Assembly (NCBI GenBank): GCA_029553545.1
Contig: JAKPKU010000016.1
Coordinates: 1 to 63,606, forward strand
Direction of reading: 5' to 3'
From: Candidatus Cloacimonadota bacterium
Lineage (GTDB): Bacteria; Cloacimonadota; Cloacimonadia; Cloacimonadales; WRIO01
DNA: 63,606 nucleotides
Both the position numbers and the translations under genes were made by a program. Of this stretch, positions 18,819 to 25,835 are shown piece by piece (the first letter of the stretch is position 1; every line of letters begins with the position of its first letter). The notes beneath the pieces were generated by a model. That model was not told the origin of the DNA, did no database searches, and saw only the letters and a program-made list of their open reading frames with translations.

Positions 18819-19898
18819 ATGAAAGTCTTGCTAATTAGCTCTGGTGAGCAGCCTGCCATTAAGGGTTTGTGTACAAAGCTAAATGACTACTATCCCAATG
18901 ATAGCTTTGAGCATCTTAATTATTATAGTAAAAATCCTTACCCAATTTTCGCTAAGATACCGCTGCTCAGATATATTTATCGGCTTTTAATCTTCATGTC
19001 ATTTAAGACAAAAATACGCCAATCTGATGTTATTAATATTCATTATATAGATTCATACACAGAGCCTCTTATTCGGCTTATTAGATATGTAAAAAGGCAT
19101 ATTATGATAGTGGTCTCGGTATGGGGGTCTGATTATTTTATCATTCAAAATAAGGCTGTTTCATATAGGAGAAAAGCCTTTGCTTTATCAGATCTCATAA
19201 CCTTTGCCAATACCTCTTATATCAGCGATTTTGCAGCCAGATATGATAATAAATACGATCATAAAGTCAGACAGGTGCGTTTTGGTTTGAAGCAGCTTGA
19301 ACTCATTAAAGATATACTGTCGAACACAAGCAAAGATGAACTCAAAAATAAAAAGCAAATCAGCGCTAAATACTGTATTCTTGCAGGAACAAATGCCCAA
19401 GAGAATCAGCAGCACGAGTTAATGATTGAGCAGTTAAATATGCTGCCAGACGAGGTAAAACGCCAAGTATGCTTTATTTTCCCTCTTACTTATGGTAACA
19501 ATAAAGAGAGAGTCGTGAATCTGTTAAAAGAGAGCAATATCAACTACTTGATCTATGATAATTGGCTGACTGATCAAGAGATAGCTGAGCTGAGAATAAT
19601 CTGTGATATAATTATTCAGCTACAGACTAATGATCAGTTTTCAGGAGCAATGCAAGAGGCGCTATATGCTGGCAATCAGGTCATTACAGGTGCTTGGCTT
19701 GATTATTCGGATTTTATACAAAGAGGTATAGATATTCATTATATCTCTGATTTTCCTGCTTTAGTGGATCAAATATCAGCTGTCTTGGCACTTATAGAGC
19801 TTAAAGAAGTAAATAAAAACCCAGATAGAGTTTGGGAATTATCAAGTTGGGAAAAGAATATTATAGCGTGGTATGAAATCTATAAAGAATATGTTTAG
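18819..19898 (+). CDS. GT-B glycosyltransferase with WecF-like segment
   Basis: SVWGSD, FIFPLTYG and D...SGAMQEALYAG motifs; last gene of the sugar cluster. Confidence 0.65.
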   Translation: MKVLLISSGEQPAIKGLCTKLNDYYPNDSFEHLNYYSKNPYPIFAKIPLLRYIYRLLIFMSFKTKIRQSDVINIHYIDSYTEPLIRLIRYVKRHIMIVVSVWGSDYFIIQNKAVSYRRKAFALSDLITFANTSYISDFAARYDNKYDHKVRQVRFGLKQLELIKDILSNTSKDELKNKKQISAKYCILAGTNAQENQQHELMIEQLNMLPDEVKRQVCFIFPLTYGNNKERVVNLLKESNINYLIYDNWLTDQEIAELRIICDIIIQLQTNDQFSGAMQEALYAGNQVITGAWLDYSDFIQRGIDIHYISDFPALVDQISAVLALIELKEVNKNPDRVWELSSWEKNIIAWYEIYKEYV

Positions 19899-20512
19899 AT
19901 GTTCAATACTACTTCAATTCTTTCAGGAGCAACAGTGATATCAAAGTTCATATCCATTTCTTTTGAATTGCTCTTTACCTCATTCTTTATATCTTCCAAT
20001 ACCTTAGCATCGATACTGTAAGTTTTATCATCACCTCTATTAAAAGTGAGGGAAATCTTTTCGCTGTCGTTTTTATATGTTAAAGTATCTTCTACGCTGG
20101 CATAGCTTAGGACAAAAATTACTATTTGATATAATGCGTTGAAATATCTTTGTGAATTAACTGGCTTGATAACTTCTTGCAGCTCTTTTTCAACAAACAA
20201 GTTATGTTTATACTGCATGTGAGACTTCATGAAAAGGTCAAAGCGATTAATAAAGTCTTCAATGTTTGTATCATATGTTTTATCATTTGTATCTTTATCA
20301 ATAAAATAGGCAGATGCTTTAAGCATATCTGATAGAGAGTCAATATGTTTTATTAGAGAACCTAGTTCTTTAATATCAGGGTATTTGATTTCCATTAGCT
20401 CTATTCTACCTGACAGTCCCATAAGCGGGGTGTTTAGATTATGTATAAATCCTGACATAAGTTTGCCATACTTTGCCCATTTTTCTAATTCAGTGCGTTC
20501 TTTATCTTCCAT
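19895..20512 (-). CDS. Pseudo-histidine kinase / ChpT-like phosphotransfer protein
   Basis: H-box GKLMSGFIHNLNTPL keeps His (codon 20441..20443); C-terminal part has no recognisable N, G1, F or G2 ATP-binding boxes. Confidence 0.6.
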   Translation of the reverse strand: MEDKERTELEKWAKYGKLMSGFIHNLNTPLMGLSGRIELMEIKYPDIKELGSLIKHIDSLSDMLKASAYFIDKDTNDKTYDTNIEDFINRFDLFMKSHMQYKHNLFVEKELQEVIKPVNSQRYFNALYQIVIFVLSYASVEDTLTYKNDSEKISLTFNRGDDKTYSIDAKVLEDIKNEVKSNSKEMDMNFDITVAPERIEVVLNI

Positions 20513-20525
20513 AAATTCTCCTTAA

Positions 20526-22562
20526 CTAATCTGTTATCTCGTCAAAGTGTTGTGAGTTAGAGTTATCATGTTCCTCTTCTATGTTGAGCATTTTGTGATT
20601 GTCGAGATTGTAATTTTTCAATGTAATATTTGTGAGTGACTTTAATCTCTTAAGGATTCTATTTATAATTGCAATGCTGTCAAATATGTTTTTAAAAGCA
20701 TTTTCTTGAACTTCTGATTTGTTTTCTAATTGCAAATCAAGGAGCTCAGCATATCCTTGTATAGCATTTAAAGGCGAGTTGATTTTATCGTTAGCAGTAA
20801 TTGCAAAAGAAGAGACAGTGATGAGTTTCTCATGTTCTAACATCTCTTTTTCTCTTGCCTTTTTTTCTTCTATATTGTGCATAATTGCCAGATCAAGTAT
20901 TTTCCCCGTGAAATTAATACTTGTAAAGTGCGTTTCTACATCAATTATCTCTTTACTGCTTGTGATGATTGGATGTGTTATGATAAATGAGTTCTCTTTA
21001 TTATCTGTTGCTTGATTAAATTTATCCATAAACCATTGTAGCTTGTCGTCAGGTATAATTCTTAAGAAAGAGAAATTTGTGTTTGTGAGATCTGAATTAT
21101 CAGCTTTTATCATTTGAAAAAAAGCCTGGTTAGCAAGTTGTAAAGTGAAGTTTTGCATGAGAATAATGCCATCATATGCATGTTCGACAATATATCGAAA
21201 TTGTTCTTCAGATTGTTTTAACACTTGCATTCTTTGTTTAATCAAGTCTTCAAGGTGTGTTGTATAAGCTTTCAGCCTGTTATCCAATGAGATACGTTCA
21301 GATATATCTTGTAATATGCAGTGAATATATGTCTCACCATCTGCAGACTTTGTAAAATTAGTTGTAAAAATAAATGTTTTAAAAAAGCCCTCAACACTTT
21401 TAATTACTATTTCATTTTCACCTTGTTGTGTGGGATCGGGGTTAAGTCTCAAAAGCCTCGTTTTGTCTTCAGGGCTAACTAAGCTGCTGATATTTGTGCC
21501 GAGAATTGTGTTTGTATTATAACCAAGAATATTATTAACACTTTTATTTACATATTTAATTACACCTTTCAAATCCAGCGTGATTGCGATATTGCTTAGT
21601 CCATCTAAGACACTTAGATTTTGTGATTCTGCTTGAGAAATAATGCCAAGCAGTTCTTGATTCTTTACAACTAATTCTTTATTTTTATTAATGATCTGAT
21701 AAGAATTAACAATGAGGTCTTTTTTTATAAAGTTTTGCTTATATAATAGAAAAACGATTATTAAGAAGAGTATGAAAAAAGTTATAACCATGATTAAAAA
21801 ATAGCTATAATTCTTTTCATAAAGATATTTCTCCTCAATTGATTTTTCCCATCTCGAAATAATGCACGATATTTCATTTGTATATATCATTTCATTAAGT
21901 ACTTTACTGATGACCATATAACTGGTTTTATCTTCGCTTTTTAACCATAATTTAGCCTCAATTTCATTCTCCAGTTTATTTACAGCAAAGACTTCTTCTG
22001 TCTTTTTGGTTAAGGCATCAAGCTGTGGCATGTGAAGATTATCTACTAAGAGCAGTCCATCTTTTTCTTGTTTGAACTTATAATAAGCTAATTCTATATC
22101 CGAAAAAATATACTGATTATTCTTATGTAACTGAGGCAAAACATCTTGTGTAAGCTCTAAGTTATTCATATAGATATTATATGTTTTTTCAAAATCAATA
22201 TTTGAACTTGAACTATACAAATAAAATTTGACCGTATACAAAGTGGTAGTTGGTATTTCTCTGTATTCTTGATTGTTTGAAAAAGAGCTTACAGCGTCGA
22301 TATCAGAGACATTTTCGCCTTCGAGGGCAAAGATGACTTTTGTATTTAGTTTACTAAATAGTGTTTTGTAAATATCTATATTAATTCCGTCAAATTCACC
22401 ATTATAATTAATAAACTCATAGGGGTAATTATTATCCGTAACGAGTATCTTAAATGCTTTTTTATTTTTTAATAGTTTTTGTTCTCCCTCATTTAATTCA
22501 AAAGAATAAATGCAAGAGAAAGCAAGTAAAAATAGGATTAATAAATGTAATCTTTTAATCAT
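20526..22562 (-). CDS. Membrane sensor: periplasmic solute-binding-like domain, TM, two PAS, degenerate HisKA; no HATPase
   Basis: YPYEF..GEFDGINIDI (SBP family 3-like), one TM, two PAS-like segments, H-box EKLITVSSFAITANDKINSPL with Asp at the His position; the protein ends soon after the DHp helices. Confidence 0.75.
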   Translation of the reverse strand: MIKRLHLLILFLLAFSCIYSFELNEGEQKLLKNKKAFKILVTDNNYPYEFINYNGEFDGINIDIYKTLFSKLNTKVIFALEGENVSDIDAVSSFSNNQEYREIPTTTLYTVKFYLYSSSSNIDFEKTYNIYMNNLELTQDVLPQLHKNNQYIFSDIELAYYKFKQEKDGLLLVDNLHMPQLDALTKKTEEVFAVNKLENEIEAKLWLKSEDKTSYMVISKVLNEMIYTNEISCIISRWEKSIEEKYLYEKNYSYFLIMVITFFILFLIIVFLLYKQNFIKKDLIVNSYQIINKNKELVVKNQELLGIISQAESQNLSVLDGLSNIAITLDLKGVIKYVNKSVNNILGYNTNTILGTNISSLVSPEDKTRLLRLNPDPTQQGENEIVIKSVEGFFKTFIFTTNFTKSADGETYIHCILQDISERISLDNRLKAYTTHLEDLIKQRMQVLKQSEEQFRYIVEHAYDGIILMQNFTLQLANQAFFQMIKADNSDLTNTNFSFLRIIPDDKLQWFMDKFNQATDNKENSFIITHPIITSSKEIIDVETHFTSINFTGKILDLAIMHNIEEKKAREKEMLEHEKLITVSSFAITANDKINSPLNAIQGYAELLDLQLENKSEVQENAFKNIFDSIAIINRILKRLKSLTNITLKNYNLDNHKMLNIEEEHDNSNSQHFDEITD

Positions 22563-22918
22563 AGTGCCAAGTGTTTATTGATAATAGACACCAAGTCATG
22601 CATTCTAAAAGGTTTTTCAAGTATAGCATTTGCTTTATTATTGTTTGCGATATTTACAGATGTTTCAATATTTACGCCTGTCATCACGATAACTGGAAAA
22701 TCAGGGGTTGTGTTTTTTATTCTTTGTAAAAGCTCGATGCCGTTCATTTTTGGCATGTTTATATCAGTCAATAGAATATCAGGTTTTTCATTTTTCCAAA
22801 GCACATATGCATCTAATCCATTTTCTGCCTGGATTACTTCAAAATCATAGTTTTCTAAAAAGTCTTTAATCATATAGCGCATGACTTTTTCATCTTCAGC
22901 GACAAGTATCTTTTTCAT
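22559..22918 (-). CDS. Stand-alone receiver-domain response regulator
   Basis: ILVAEDE, LLTDINMP (phospho-Asp), VIVMTG, EKPF. Start is ATG 22918 after GGAG; the track's GTG start lies inside a hairpin. Confidence 0.92.
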   Translation of the reverse strand: MKKILVAEDEKVMRYMIKDFLENYDFEVIQAENGLDAYVLWKNEKPDILLTDINMPKMNGIELLQRIKNTTPDFPVIVMTGVNIETSVNIANNNKANAILEKPFRMHDLVSIINKHLAL

Positions 22919-22943: not shown

Positions 22944-22973
22944 AAAAGGGGGTGGCAATAATTTATGCCACCC
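22944..22973 (-). terminator. Hairpin / weak intrinsic terminator after the aminotransferase
   Basis: GGGTGGCA-N8-TGCCACCC followed by CCTTTT on the minus strand (short U tract). Confidence 0.6.
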
Positions 22974-22986
22974 ACAATATAGCTTT

Positions 22987-24195
22987 TTATCTTAGCTCTG
23001 ATTTAATTGCTTCAGCAAGACGTTTAATTCCTTCGTAGTTAGTTTCTTTTGAGCAGAATGAGAAATTGAGGCGCATTGTATTTTTGCCTTCGCCATCACA
23101 GTAGAAAGAGGTTCCACTGACAAATGCTACGTTTTTCTCGATTGCTTTTTTAAACAATTCATTGGTGTCCATGTATTCAGGGCAAGTTACAAAGAGGAAC
23201 AATCCACCTTCAGGCTTTGTCCAAGTGATTTCTTTTGGCATAAATTCTTCAAGTGCTTTCAACATACCGTCGCGTTTTTCACGATATGAGTCAACTATAC
23301 CTTTAATATTTTTATCAATCAAGCCTTTTTCCATATATCTTGCTGCAATTCTTTGAGTAAATGGAGGTGTGCAAAGGTCTGTTGCTTGTTTTGCCACAAC
23401 GATTTTGTCGATGATGTCTGGATGAGCAATTACCCAACCGATTCTAAAGCCAGGCGCAAAGATCTTTGAGAATGTGCCAAGGCTAATTACATGTCCTGTA
23501 TTATCGAGTGAGAAAATAGTTGGCACATGCTCGCCCTCAAAACGAAGCTCACGATATGGGCTATCTTCAAGAATAAGCACATTGTATTTTTTAGCAATTG
23601 CTAATATTTCTTCTCTTCTCTTCTGTGGCATAGTGATGCCTGCAGGGTTTTGGAAGTCTGGAATAGTGTAGATAAACTTTGGTGTAATATTCTTTGCTTT
23701 TAATTCTGCAAGTTTTTTCTCTAATAATTCAGCACTCATCCCTTGATCATCAAGAGGAATGCCGTGCATATCAGCACCATAGCTATTAAATGCGCTTAAT
23801 CCGCCAAGATATGATGGAAGCCCACAAATAACTGCATCGCCACGATTGATAAAAATCTTTGCTACTAAGTCAAGCGCTTGCTGTGATGCTGTAACGATGA
23901 TTACATTATCAACAGTTATATCAAAACCCTCTTTTTGATATTTTTTAGCAATTTCTTTTCTTAAAAGCATATCACCTTCAGTTGCGCCATATTGAAGCGC
24001 AAGTGCAGGCTCTTTTTCCATCATTTCTTGAATAATGTCTTTCAGCTCTTCAACAGGAAATGACTCTGGAGCAGGTAAACCGCCTGCAAATGAAATAACT
24101 TCTGGTCTTTGAGTAAGCTTTAAAAGCTCTCTGATCGCTGATCTTTTCATTCCTTTGGAATTAATCGAGAAGATGTCGTTTAAGTTGCTTATCAT
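22987..24195 (-). CDS. PLP-dependent class I aminotransferase (LysN / 2-aminoadipate transaminase-like)
   Basis: ISFAGGLP, LQYGATEG, IPDFQNPAG, EDSPY, TFSKIFAPGFRIGW, RLNFS. Confidence 0.9.
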   Translation of the reverse strand: MISNLNDIFSINSKGMKRSAIRELLKLTQRPEVISFAGGLPAPESFPVEELKDIIQEMMEKEPALALQYGATEGDMLLRKEIAKKYQKEGFDITVDNVIIVTASQQALDLVAKIFINRGDAVICGLPSYLGGLSAFNSYGADMHGIPLDDQGMSAELLEKKLAELKAKNITPKFIYTIPDFQNPAGITMPQKRREEILAIAKKYNVLILEDSPYRELRFEGEHVPTIFSLDNTGHVISLGTFSKIFAPGFRIGWVIAHPDIIDKIVVAKQATDLCTPPFTQRIAARYMEKGLIDKNIKGIVDSYREKRDGMLKALEEFMPKEITWTKPEGGLFLFVTCPEYMDTNELFKKAIEKNVAFVSGTSFYCDGEGKNTMRLNFSFCSKETNYEGIKRLAEAIKSELR

Positions 24196-24217: not shown

Positions 24218-25558
24218 TTATGTATTTATATATTTATTTAAAGTTATTATTTCTAATTGTCTTTCTATTTGGTCAATATATTTATAATCGATTTCGATGT
24301 CAATCATATATTCATTATTCAATTCATCATAAGCAATATCCAACACTTTTCCGTTTTGATGCAAAAAATTAATCAAGTTTGCATTATCTACAGGTATATG
24401 ATAAGATACTGTCTTTTTGCGTTTTTTCAAATAATAATTTATCTTTTCATAAAGAGTGTCCATATTGAGCCCTGTTTTGGCTGAAATAAAGACAGAATCT
24501 GGATATATTTCTCTCAACTGTTTTTTCAAAAACAATGAGGATAAATCATTGCATAGATCCCATTTATTAAAGACCAGCAAGATATTCTTATCGTGAGCTT
24601 TGATATCCTTTAAAACTTTATCCACAGAGTCTATTAGTTCGTCTAATCTCGCACTTGAGGCATCAACAACATGAAGGAGTAAATCTGATTCCAGTACCTC
24701 ATGCAGAGTGGAATAAAAAGATTGTATTAATAGAGGCGGCAAATTGTTTATAAAACCTATCGTATCGGTGATTAGTATTTGTTCATTGTTTTTATTTTTC
24801 ACTGCTCTTGTTGTGGCATCAAGCGTGGCAAATAGTTGATCTGCAGCGTATAATTGTGAATTAGTCAGTTTATTAAAAAGCGTTGATTTTCCTGCATTGG
24901 TGTATCCAACCAAGCAGATAGAGAGAACATCATCACGTCTTTTTCTCTTTGTTTGAGTGATTTTTTGTATCTCTTCCAATTTCTTTTTTAGTTTAGAGAT
25001 GCGCGTTTTGATCAATCTTCTGTCTTTTTCTAATTGTTTCTCACCAGGTCCTCTGACCCCGATCATTCCGCCATCAATACGTGAAAAGTGCTCCCATAAA
25101 TTTTTTAGTTTGGAAAAACTATATTCAAGCTGAGCTACTTCCACTTGAATTTTAGACTCTTTTGTTTGAGCATGTTGAGCAAAGATATCCAAAATCAACT
25201 CAGTTCTATCTACAACATTACATTTGCTAATTTTGGTAATATTTCTTGTTTGCGCTGGGGTTAAATTATCATTAAAAATTAAGGTAGTAACTTCTTTTTC
25301 TTTAGCTTCTTTTATAATCTCATTGAGTTTACCCTTGCCAATCCAGGTGGCGGGGTTTGCAGTTTCGAGCTCTTGAGTAAAAGAACCCATATACTCTACT
25401 TCGGCAGTTTGTGAGAGATGCCTTAATTCTTCCATTGATTCCATGTACTCAGCCTTTTTGAAATTACTTTCATACAAGCCAATCAGAAATGCACGCTCAC
25501 GTGTATTTCTGAGAGGTATTACTTGATATGCTTCATTTTTGCTCTTATTGTGGGTCAT
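24218..25558 (-). CDS. hflX: Ribosome-splitting GTPase HflX
   Basis: VVDRTELILDIFAQHA, GPGEKQLE, GYTNAGKST, LFATLD, DTIGF, NKWD, SAK. Confidence 0.95.
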   Translation of the reverse strand: MTHNKSKNEAYQVIPLRNTRERAFLIGLYESNFKKAEYMESMEELRHLSQTAEVEYMGSFTQELETANPATWIGKGKLNEIIKEAKEKEVTTLIFNDNLTPAQTRNITKISKCNVVDRTELILDIFAQHAQTKESKIQVEVAQLEYSFSKLKNLWEHFSRIDGGMIGVRGPGEKQLEKDRRLIKTRISKLKKKLEEIQKITQTKRKRRDDVLSICLVGYTNAGKSTLFNKLTNSQLYAADQLFATLDATTRAVKNKNNEQILITDTIGFINNLPPLLIQSFYSTLHEVLESDLLLHVVDASSARLDELIDSVDKVLKDIKAHDKNILLVFNKWDLCNDLSSLFLKKQLREIYPDSVFISAKTGLNMDTLYEKINYYLKKRKKTVSYHIPVDNANLINFLHQNGKVLDIAYDELNNEYMIDIEIDYKYIDQIERQLEIITLNKYINT

Positions 25559-25835
25559 AGATCCTTATTTTTTTCAGCTTCTTTCTCCATTCAGCGTAGG
25601 CGTTTTTGATTTCCAACAAGAATAATGTTTTCTTATCATCATTTTCAAAAGTAATGATATCCATTGAGTGTATTTTCCCATCTTTAGCTTTAAAGCTCTT
25701 GACGGGCAGCTCAATTTCAATCTCTCCTTCTTTTCGTAGAACAGTTATTTCATTGATAAAAATACCTTCACTGAACTGGATTACTGCTCTTGCTTCGACT
25801 ATACCATAGTTTACGTCTCTAAATTTAATTTCCAT
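25545..25835 (-). CDS. SpoVG-like small protein
   Basis: Pattern ARAVIQF..IFINEITV..IELP.KSF..DG..DII.F followed by a C-terminal helix ending EIKNAY resembles SpoVG; overlaps the hflX start. Confidence 0.5.
   Translation of the reverse strand: MEIKFRDVNYGIVEARAVIQFSEGIFINEITVLRKEGEIEIELPVKSFKAKDGKIHSMDIITFENDDKKTLFLLEIKNAYAEWRKKLKKIRIYDPQ

Follow-up and report, generated by a model that had tools for sequence, protein, structure and literature searches.

A conserved aspartate-for-histidine pseudo-kinase, co-inherited with a receiver and adjoining a histidine protein with a decayed ATPase domain, in Cloacimonadota

Pseudo-histidine kinases are a recognized class of signaling proteins of which few have been studied, and the known cases are each a single, lineage-specific protein. 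RetS-GacS of Pseudomonas and RocA-CovS of group A Streptococcus are systems of one type. In RocA-CovS, a membrane pseudokinase whose own phosphorylation is not needed controls its partner kinase through direct contact (PMC7028121), and the role proposed for DivL of Caulobacter is to sense a single-domain receiver with the surface of its dimerization and histidine phosphotransfer (DHp) domain and to relay the information by allostery (PMC4211667). In ChpT (Caulobacter/Brucella) and Spo0B (Bacillus), proteins of about 205 amino acids (aa) with no input domain, a histidine-bearing hairpin is joined to a domain that resembles the catalytic and ATP-binding (CA) domain of kinases and is unable to bind ATP. 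RedE of the Myxococcus RedCDEF system and the bifunctional phosphotransferase PhyT/PhyP of Sphingomonas (PMC5898713) are kinase-like, have no autokinase activity, and move or remove phosphate in relays of several components. In split kinases (CheA3/CheA4 of Rhodobacter and HisKA-only proteins), finally, the kinase functions are spread over separate polypeptides. Here, we describe three adjoining genes within a stretch of 63,606 nucleotides (the window) on contig JAKPKU010000016.1 of a Candidatus Cloacimonadota bacterium (assembly GCA_029553545.1). They encode a stand-alone receiver (REC), a membrane sensor with aspartate in place of the phospho-acceptor histidine and no CA domain, and a 205-aa histidine protein (p205), and a sequence-only reading had proposed that they form a two-component-like module with no kinase.

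The sensor is a conserved pseudo-kinase, neither a decayed gene nor an assembly error, and the aspartate at its histidine position is under selection. Its match to HisKA (PF00512) covers residues 592-646, scores 27.2 bits against a gathering cut-off of 26.9, and begins on Asp592 at model position 11, which we take to be the histidine column. Because the aligned paralogues of the same genome read TANHEINQPL and TTNHELKQPL where the sensor reads TANDKINSPL, aspartate stands at the histidine position and lysine at that of the next glutamate, just as had been proposed from the letters. The hidden Markov model scan found HisKA above its cut-off in the sensor and weakly in p205, and HATPase_c in none of the three proteins. 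The absence of an ATPase domain behind the H-box, also claimed earlier, is borne out for the sensor, which has no Pfam match to HATPase_c with its N, G1, F, and G2 boxes and stops 86 aa past Asp592. The AlphaFold model of the sensor was poor (predicted local distance difference test [pLDDT] 58, predicted template-modeling score [pTM] 0.28) and was used for secondary structure only; with low confidence, it gives a helical hairpin (564-611/617-650) followed by a disordered tail, which is likely the remnant of the DHp-CA linker and the first CA strand.

A profile search found the sensor in 12 of 232 genomes of the phylum, each time adjoining p205, together with a thirteenth copy that is interrupted by a contig end. 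The closest named relative is a Candidatus Cloacimonadales protein, and the family is called "PAS domain S-box protein" where it is named at all. Orthologues with an intact histidine and an ATPase domain were looked for, and all 13 instead read T-[AMT]-N-D-[KRMG]-I-N-S-P-L and end about 85 aa later with no CA domain, the most distant full-length ones being only 27-34% identical. Of the two H-box residues whose conservation had been expected, the aspartate is present in 13/13, and the next position holds Lys, Arg, Met, or Gly; the gene order is conserved as expected, with REC and the sensor just upstream of p205 in 13/13. Histidine and CA are both missing, the protein is conserved across families, and the gene is flanked by REC and a protein with a histidine-type DHp domain. 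These features place the sensor in the pseudo-histidine kinase class of Collins and Childers (cited in PMC12632262).

The exchange of histidine for aspartate is no novelty of this locus and instead characterizes an old clade present in several phyla. When the last 118 aa of the sensor were searched against 1.8 billion representative proteins (E <= 0.001), just 103 relatives were found, nearly all of them matching at their extreme C-terminus and ending 70-90 aa beyond the histidine or aspartate position. The family motif is [AV][VI]T.[NS][HD].IN[QNST]PL, followed some 55 aa on by Y......M[IL]D[LI]. The tail motif is present across the 103 relatives, and Y651 within it is near-invariant in the Asp clade. 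The sensor's DHp domain is thus part of a family of its own, made up of terminal DHp domains with no CA domain behind them. When 110 domains of the family were placed in a tree, 36/38 Asp-type domains formed one clade (support 92/97), and three state changes sufficed overall. His-type domains have Glu at +1 (66/72) and Gln or Asn at +4 (70/72), Asp-type domains have Lys, Arg, or Gln at +1 (31/38; never an acidic residue) and Ser or Thr at +4 (34/38), and Asn at +3 is common to both types. The coordinated changes at +1 and +4 argue for a remodeled site and not for drift. Asp592, Pro597, and Leu598 are invariant, and Asn595 is nearly so, in 35 full-length Asp-type proteins with otherwise 13-50% identity. 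PAS domains occur in 25 of these 35 proteins, SBP_bac_3 in 9 (best E 1.7e-10; the match in the window's own sensor, at 19.5 bits, is under the cut-off), receivers in 8, and GAF in 4; HisKA is matched in 29 (E <= 0.001), and HATPase_c is absent from the 25 most frequent of the 34 families that they match.

About 3.7% of HisKA proteins overall are without HATPase_c (PMC3591291), and about 0.9% of all HisKA domains are without the histidine (PMC12632262). In the genome studied here, no fewer than 8 of the 29 HisKA matches lack a CA domain, and at least seven further members of the family keep the histidine, with PAS, REC, REC-PAS, GAF, or TPR inputs and none with HATPase_c. The seven lie at C162:37048-38043, C241:16184-16957, C54:10949-11971, C104:34354-35184, C1:35773-37299, C1:32450-33997, and C141:714-2246, and three of them have TPR; a TPR-DHp protein at C16:15173-16843 has a degenerate CA domain. 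In the literature, we found nothing specific on DHp domains with Asp for His or on CA-less DHp families. As in DivL, where the replacement is Tyr, the phospho-acceptor histidine is replaced in the sensor; DivL, however, keeps its CA domain and is cytoplasmic, whereas the sensor has no CA domain, an invariant Asp with linked +1 and +4 changes, and a membrane topology with a periplasmic SBP-like domain. RocA differs in having both the histidine and a degenerate CA domain and a full sensor kinase as its partner, whereas the candidate partner here is itself an input-less mini-core that no longer binds ATP, and the sensor is inherited with a dedicated receiver.

REC is a full receiver (PF00072) in which the E8/D9 acidic pair, the phospho-acceptor D52, T80, and K102 are all present, in agreement with the earlier reading as to the Asp and the Lys. 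REC orthologues are present in 13/13 sensor genomes (102-182 bits, 46-72% identity, full-domain alignments) and in 0/12 sensor-less genomes, where the best receiver, at about 80 bits, is another paralogue. On the strength of this co-occurrence, REC and the sensor form a two-gene cassette that is gained or lost as one.

The third protein, p205, has the architecture of ChpT and Spo0B, with a histidine-bearing DHp hairpin, a CA-like domain predicted not to bind ATP, a similar size, and no input domain. Its AlphaFold model (pLDDT 78.7, pTM 0.76) consists of helices 3-42 and 47-74 followed by an alpha/beta domain, all of ChpT size, and Foldseek aligned it with ChpT (4fpp, 205 aa; 4qpj) at a template-modeling (TM) score of 0.50 and with DivL (4q20) at 0.52; ordinary kinase cores, at E ~1e-9, outscored both by E-value. 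A Pfam scan (E <= 1) yielded two matches, a weak one to HisKA (E 0.03, with His24 at the histidine column) and one to DUF6530, and none to HATPase_c, Hpt (PF01627), an input domain, or the ChpT (HPTransfase) and Spo0B families. The DUF6530 match (E 4.5e-4, 20.6 bits, under the cut-off) covers aa 128-189 of the CA-like part (window 19946-20131). A relationship by sequence to ChpT or Spo0B was rejected, as neither family matched even at this threshold; the label "ChpT-like" in the earlier reading thus stands for architecture and fails for kinship. Unlike ChpT and Spo0B, p205 is a shortened member of one particular kinase subfamily, that with the H-box HN[IL]NTPLMG; the loss of ATP motifs is still under way across its orthologues, and we know of no cognate hybrid kinase for it. 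In the sources, p205 is mostly unnamed, with one relative called "hypothetical protein" and one distant relative called "histidine kinase."

Alignment of p205 to a true paralogous kinase agrees with what had been read from its translation, namely a retained histidine (His24), Asn at H+1, and no N, G1, F, or G2 boxes. The N-box reads LYQIVIFVLSYA, its Asn being gone, G1 is missing, and F and G2 are deleted along with about 19 aa at the ATP lid. The nearest paralogue in the genome is an intact 672-aa kinase with the H-box VHNLNSPL and the same YKH motif. Since this and intact kinases of other phyla have Asn at H+1, the residue is a trait of the subfamily, and it was rejected as a sign of an inactive histidine. 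Small open reading frames in 27 genomes of the phylum matched the p205 profile strongly (E <= 1e-28). Among 24 orthologues, mean pairwise identity is 69% in DHp helix 1 and 22% in the CA-like part; His24 and the whole H-box are kept in 24/24 (columns >=90% conserved), and the CA part is decayed in 21/24. Two orthologues (G130 and G121) keep the N-box Asn, DxG, and GxGxG, and another (G129) keeps N and G2 and not G1; the remaining ones miss some or all motifs, those of the window's family (f1) additionally lacking about 19 aa over the F box, ATP lid, and G2. With 3/24 orthologues looking at least partly ATP-competent, the "no kinase" of the sequence-only reading is right for the module in the window and wrong as a general state, being specific to the lineage. 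The core would thus be caught part-way toward a ChpT-like phosphotransferase, with all motifs in 2/24, some in a few, and the rest lid-less or otherwise degenerate.

Within this lineage, the module is without an ATP-binding kinase domain. No HATPase_c match was found on the 63.6-kb window contig, and elsewhere in the genome there are 30. A nearby stand-alone CA protein or Hpt protein was considered as the missing partner and rejected, none being present in the window, and Hpt (PF01627) matched none of the three proteins. The sole Hpt of the genome lies on another contig in a probable CheA, a 1024-aa frame that joins it to HATPase_c and REC. The genome encodes about 25 HATPase_c-bearing proteins, not all of them kinases, and about 8 hybrid kinases. 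Since the genome has these hybrid kinases and no Hpt protein beside the probable CheA, a ChpT-like role for p205 would fill a gap.

Homologues of all three proteins are linked again in distant lineages. A degenerate DNA pattern encoding A[VI]T.ND.IN[ST]PL, run over 185,579 species genomes, gave 56 matches, of which 54 are true Asp-type DHp genes and 2 arose by chance; the scan catches this exact pattern only, and the counts are therefore lower bounds. The genes fall into four families, with host groups taken from record titles: (i) F1, the Cloacimonadota sensor, with 11 matches; (ii) F2, REC-REC-PAS-DHp(Asp) proteins of ~510 aa, with 14 matches in Calditrichaeota, KSB1, and unclassified genomes; (iii) F3, GAF-PAS-DHp(Asp) proteins of ~445 aa, with 10 matches in Delongbacteria and others; and (iv) F4, REC-DHp(Asp)-REC proteins of ~370 aa, with 19 matches in Calditrichaeota, KSB1, and unclassified genomes. 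F2 and F4 occur together in about 14 genomes. In 11/19 loci, F4 is followed, often with a 4-bp overlap, by a kinase of ~545 aa (REC-PAS-DHp-CA), and six further loci end before the kinase position, at the edge of the examined stretch. These kinases score 90-142 bits on the p205 profile (117-142 in 10/11), against about 25 for generic kinases, and have the p205 signature (AHNINTPLMGIYG, KHPDI, FKH) and a p205-type H-box (AHNINTPLMG) plus intact N, G1, F, and G2 boxes; helix 1 is kept between p205 of F1 and the F4 kinases, with Met at +7 and Gly at +8 and +11. F2 is followed in 13/14 loci by a 121-aa receiver and a generic REC-PAS kinase (H-box AHEMKQPL), and F3 has no neighboring receiver or kinase.

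The receivers tell a similar story. The best matches of the window's REC are the receiver fused behind Asp-DHp in F4 (<=97 bits) and the stand-alone receiver linked to F2 (<=87 bits), compared with 80 bits for the most similar of the genome's other receivers. A tree built from 132 receivers places the F1 cassette receivers (97) and the C-terminal F4 receivers as sisters (SH-aLRT 83) and leaves the genome's 29 other receivers outside. Fusions of an Asp-type DHp to a receiver occur in 8/35 clusters and in two of the four orthologous families. Homologues of all three window proteins are thus linked in distant lineages that retain an intact kinase core, which points to an undescribed two-component variant and not to gene decay. 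The earlier proposal that the three genes belong together gains from both the conserved gene order and this renewed linkage.

Two further observations concern the operons of these families. At least six F4 operons begin with a protein of ~215-265 aa that has a His-type DHp domain (AHELNNPLQG) and a degenerate CA-like domain (L060:3327-4037, L084:6848-7543, L072:3148-3882, L088:1694-2500, L054:6410-7057, and L057:488-1285), and which would be a second, independent ChpT-like mini-protein tied to an Asp-type DHp. The F2 operon at L041:273-8929 (GCA_020637415.1) and that at L042 include a REC-HATPase_c_2 protein, the 121-aa receiver, and the REC-PAS kinase and lie directly downstream of flagellin, fliD, and fliS.

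The observed architecture, its conservation, the co-inheritance, and the cross-phylum linkage of three homologous parts lead us to favor, tentatively and as a close call, a single signaling circuit in which p205 serves as the histidine protein, the Asp-sensor acts on the receiver under ligand control, and phosphate comes from elsewhere. The trio would descend from an older one made up of an HN[IL]NTPLMG kinase core, a particular receiver subfamily, and an Asp-type DHp protein. Because p205 is a kinase core that lost its ATP lid in this Cloacimonadales lineage, it would most likely have become a ChpT/Spo0B-like histidine phosphotransferase or phosphatase. We infer that its His24 exchanges phosphate with Asp52 of REC, because the p205-type helix 1 is shared by F1 and F4, whose linked receivers group as sisters; p205 probably also serves another, unlinked regulator. 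The sensor, whose DHp domain would not be phosphorylatable, may receive signals from a periplasmic ligand, probably an amino acid, through the SBP-like domain and from the cytoplasmic PAS domains, and use the DHp domain to dock the receiver and set its phosphorylation state. Action on the receiver is suggested by the strict joint inheritance and translational coupling of the two and by how often an Asp-DHp is fused to a receiver. Phosphate would have to enter from outside the trio, through another HATPase_c-bearing protein of the genome or from acetyl phosphate.

The sensor could set the state of the receiver in either of two ways: (i) it may promote hydrolysis of phosphorylated REC, with Asp592 and Asn595 as an acid/amide pair like that of CheX ExxN, or (ii) it may sequester the unphosphorylated receiver as a built-in mimic of phospho-histidine. 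Phosphatase motifs of this kind, which insert an acid and an amide into the active site of the receiver, include ExxN in CheX/CheC, DxxxQ in CheZ, and E/DxxT/N in HisKA. In Asp592 and Asn595, an acid and an amide likewise stand one helical turn apart, by analogy, with a spacing that is presumably that of CheX ExxN and HisKA E/DxxT/N. An acidic residue at the histidine position is phosphomimetic in DesK (H188E; PMC5231405), and the histidine is dispensable for HisKA phosphatase activity (PMC12632262). A wider claim, possible in our view but doubtful, is that the Asp-type CA-less DHp (T-x-[NS]-D-[KRQ]-I-N-[ST]-P-L) is a multi-phylum "third component," a remodeled active site acting as a phospho-histidine mimic or an Asp/Asn receiver phosphatase and co-evolved with one receiver and one kinase-core subfamily, with the window as an end state where the kinase core, too, has abandoned ATP. 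If true, a complete sensor-to-receiver circuit would here run on imported phosphate.

Several points weigh against the single circuit. The Asp/Asn pair is one helical position off the canonical E/DxxT/N register, and Asn +3 is found in His-type relatives too. Two Asp-type families or members stand alone, with no adjoining receiver or kinase. In 12 species, p205 is found with neither REC nor the sensor and keeps its helix-1 "specificity" residues (M31, G35, and R36), so its main partner may be a different regulator; the sensor equivalents (N599, G603, and Y604) differ, and the two need not share a receiver. The p205 of one species (G001) has a stop codon within it, next to an intact REC and sensor. 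The sister grouping of the receivers has moderate support (SH-aLRT 83 in a quick tree), and expression rests on few low-depth contigs, for which DNA carry-over is possible.

The strongest competitor, unlikely in our view but to be taken seriously, is a split sensor-transmitter heterodimer in which the Asp-DHp of the sensor and the His-DHp of p205 share one four-helix bundle, p205 would gain a sensory subunit as in a pseudokinase-kinase pair, and the receiver is only a downstream substrate. It would suit a p205 that is without any input domain and adjoins the sensor in 13/13 genomes with gaps of 0-40 bp or overlaps, and Asp-type proteins and p205-type kinase cores are neighbors again in other phyla. 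Both DHp types have [D/H]-x-[IL]-N-[ST]-P-L, the His-type CA-less relatives reading HEINQPL, and RocA-CovS is a documented case of a membrane pseudokinase that regulates a kinase (PMC7028121). However, Asp-type DHp proteins are also found as orphans or beside generic kinases (F2, AHEMKQPL), and strict co-inheritance of the sensor is with the receiver, not with p205, which also occurs alone. The p205 profile moreover gives the Asp-type DHp less than 20 bits, a score too low for close kinship between the two hairpins. Co-inheritance and fusion slightly favor an Asp-DHp directed at the receiver.

It is also conceivable, if improbable, that the neighbors are unrelated, with p205 belonging to hflX and the aminotransferase upstream and REC and the sensor forming an independent cassette that landed ahead of p205 and signals elsewhere. 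A block of 96-aa protein, hflX, and aminotransferase stands ahead of p205 in 24 species, with or without REC and the sensor between, and hflX and the aminotransferase precede p205 at every locus long enough to show it. REC and the sensor lie between aminotransferase and p205 in 12-13 species; in 12 others, p205 follows the aminotransferase directly. The differing helix-1 residues of sensor and p205 and the stop codon in G001 would also fit. Against this, the cassette is never found away from p205 (13/13 adjoin), and the three parts are linked again in Calditrichota and KSB1-like genomes in another gene order and fusion state, for which chance is hard to invoke; a transcript contig, furthermore, crosses the junction of sensor and p205. 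Many Cloacimonadales families keep this order of 96-aa protein, hflX, aminotransferase, and p205 (loci L001, L003, and L017-L040).

A phosphorylation-independent remnant, in which phosphate chemistry is dead and only binding persists, or in which p205 is being lost, seems quite improbable. The decay of CA in 21/24 p205 orthologues, the lack of any kinase in the window, and the stop codon in one species could be read in this way. In that species, one in-frame TAA splits p205 into 90-aa and 128-aa open reading frames (L020:5494-5766 and L061:5993-6673), which is either a pseudogene or a sequencing error. Yet His24 and the H-box are kept in all 24 orthologues, and REC keeps every phosphorylation residue, its orthologues aligning over the full domain at 46-72% identity, the pattern to be anticipated under continued selection for phosphotransfer. 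The loss of histidine and CA through local decay of the gene, or as an artefact of assembly or frameshift, is scarcely credible and was rejected, having nothing but the atypical architecture in its favor, since the same residue and architecture recur in 13 species genomes and independent metagenome contigs and RNA-derived contigs match the junction exactly.

By analogy, the single circuit that we favor appears to resemble a phosphorelay branch made of pseudo-enzymes, pairing a ChpT/Spo0B-like histidine protein with a DivL- or RocA-like pseudokinase, neither being a member of those families. What sets it apart is an invariant Asp accompanied by linked substitutions, a sensor wholly devoid of CA, a conserved three-way association that involves one receiver and one kinase-core subfamily, and the loss of ATP binding by the core in this lineage. 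PhyT/PhyP and RedE, in contrast, keep the histidine on the sensing or relaying protein and have no Asp-type DHp partner. Like the trio, split kinases spread their functions over separate polypeptides, but one partner there still has a working ATPase domain, which none of the three proteins has here. Where the pseudo-histidine kinases known so far are single proteins, this would be a whole clade of four or more orthologous families, from Cloacimonadota, Calditrichota, KSB1, Delongbacteria, and unclassified genomes, each with Asp for the histidine, linked changes next to it, and no catalytic domain, and the clade comes with co-inherited candidate partners. It opens to test the role of a DHp domain that would be neither phosphorylatable nor phosphorylating, for which three small soluble fragments suffice. 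Coordinates of the trio and of its neighbors are collected in Table 1.

Table 1. Positions in the window of the three-gene module, its parts, and the features upstream of it
Feature	Position	Strand	Description
REC	22559..22918	-	stand-alone receiver, 119 aa; D52 codon 22763..22765; Pfam Response_reg 98.1 bits
Sensor pseudo-kinase	20526..22562	-	678 aa; signal/TM1, SBP_bac_3-like, TM2, PAS, PAS, DHp with Asp, acidic tail; no CA
Sensor transmembrane segment TM1	22500..22550	-	
Sensor periplasmic SBP_bac_3-like ligand-binding domain	21849..22448	-	aa 39-238, between TM1 and TM2
Sensor transmembrane segment TM2	21741..21803	-	
Sensor cytoplasmic PAS domains (two)	20883..21611	-	aa 318-422 and 453-560; Pfam PAS_9, PAS, PAS_8; TIGR00229 62.5 bits
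Sensor DHp-like helical hairpin	20613..20873	-	aa 564-650; Asp592 (20787..20789), Lys593, Asn595, Ser596
Sensor C-terminal tail	20529..20612	-	aa 651-678; family motif Y......M[IL].[IL], then acidic residues
p205 (205-aa protein)	19895..20512	-	DHp aa 3-74, His24 codon 20441..20443; CA-like alpha/beta domain aa 80-205
Terminator-like GC hairpin and T-run	22950..22973	-	between aminotransferase stop and REC start
Aminotransferase	22987..24195	-	upstream of trio
HflX GTPase	24218..25558	-	upstream of trio
96-aa protein	25545..25835	-	upstream of hflX

The open reading frames of the trio follow one another tail to head on the minus strand, in the order REC, sensor, p205. Their close coupling had been claimed from the letters and was seen as described: the REC stop and the sensor start share 4 bp (ATGA), and the 13-nt spacer between sensor and p205 contains an AAGGAG ribosome-binding site, the spacing at this junction over the 13 genomes being a gap of 0-40 bp or an overlap. 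The REC start is the ATG at 22918, with GGAG ahead of it, and an alternative GTG at 22975 falls within the terminator-like hairpin. This hairpin (GGGTGGCA...TGCCACCC plus a T-rich run) lies only about 30 nt ahead of the REC ribosome-binding site, leaving little space for a separate sigma-70-type promoter. Standing between the aminotransferase and REC, it suggests that the trio is set apart from the hflX-aminotransferase transcript or is reached through read-through. Among metatranscriptome contigs from wastewater and anaerobic digesters, some match parts of REC and p205, and two cross the sensor/p205 junction, one without a mismatch (20381..20594). No terminator-like site was found between p205 and a convergent 359-aa gene (18819..19898, plus strand), the end of which overlaps the p205 stop (19895-19898) by 4 bp. 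That gene is the last of a sugar-modification cluster with an epimerase, a DegT-type aminotransferase, and an acetyltransferase, as named from reading the translations only.

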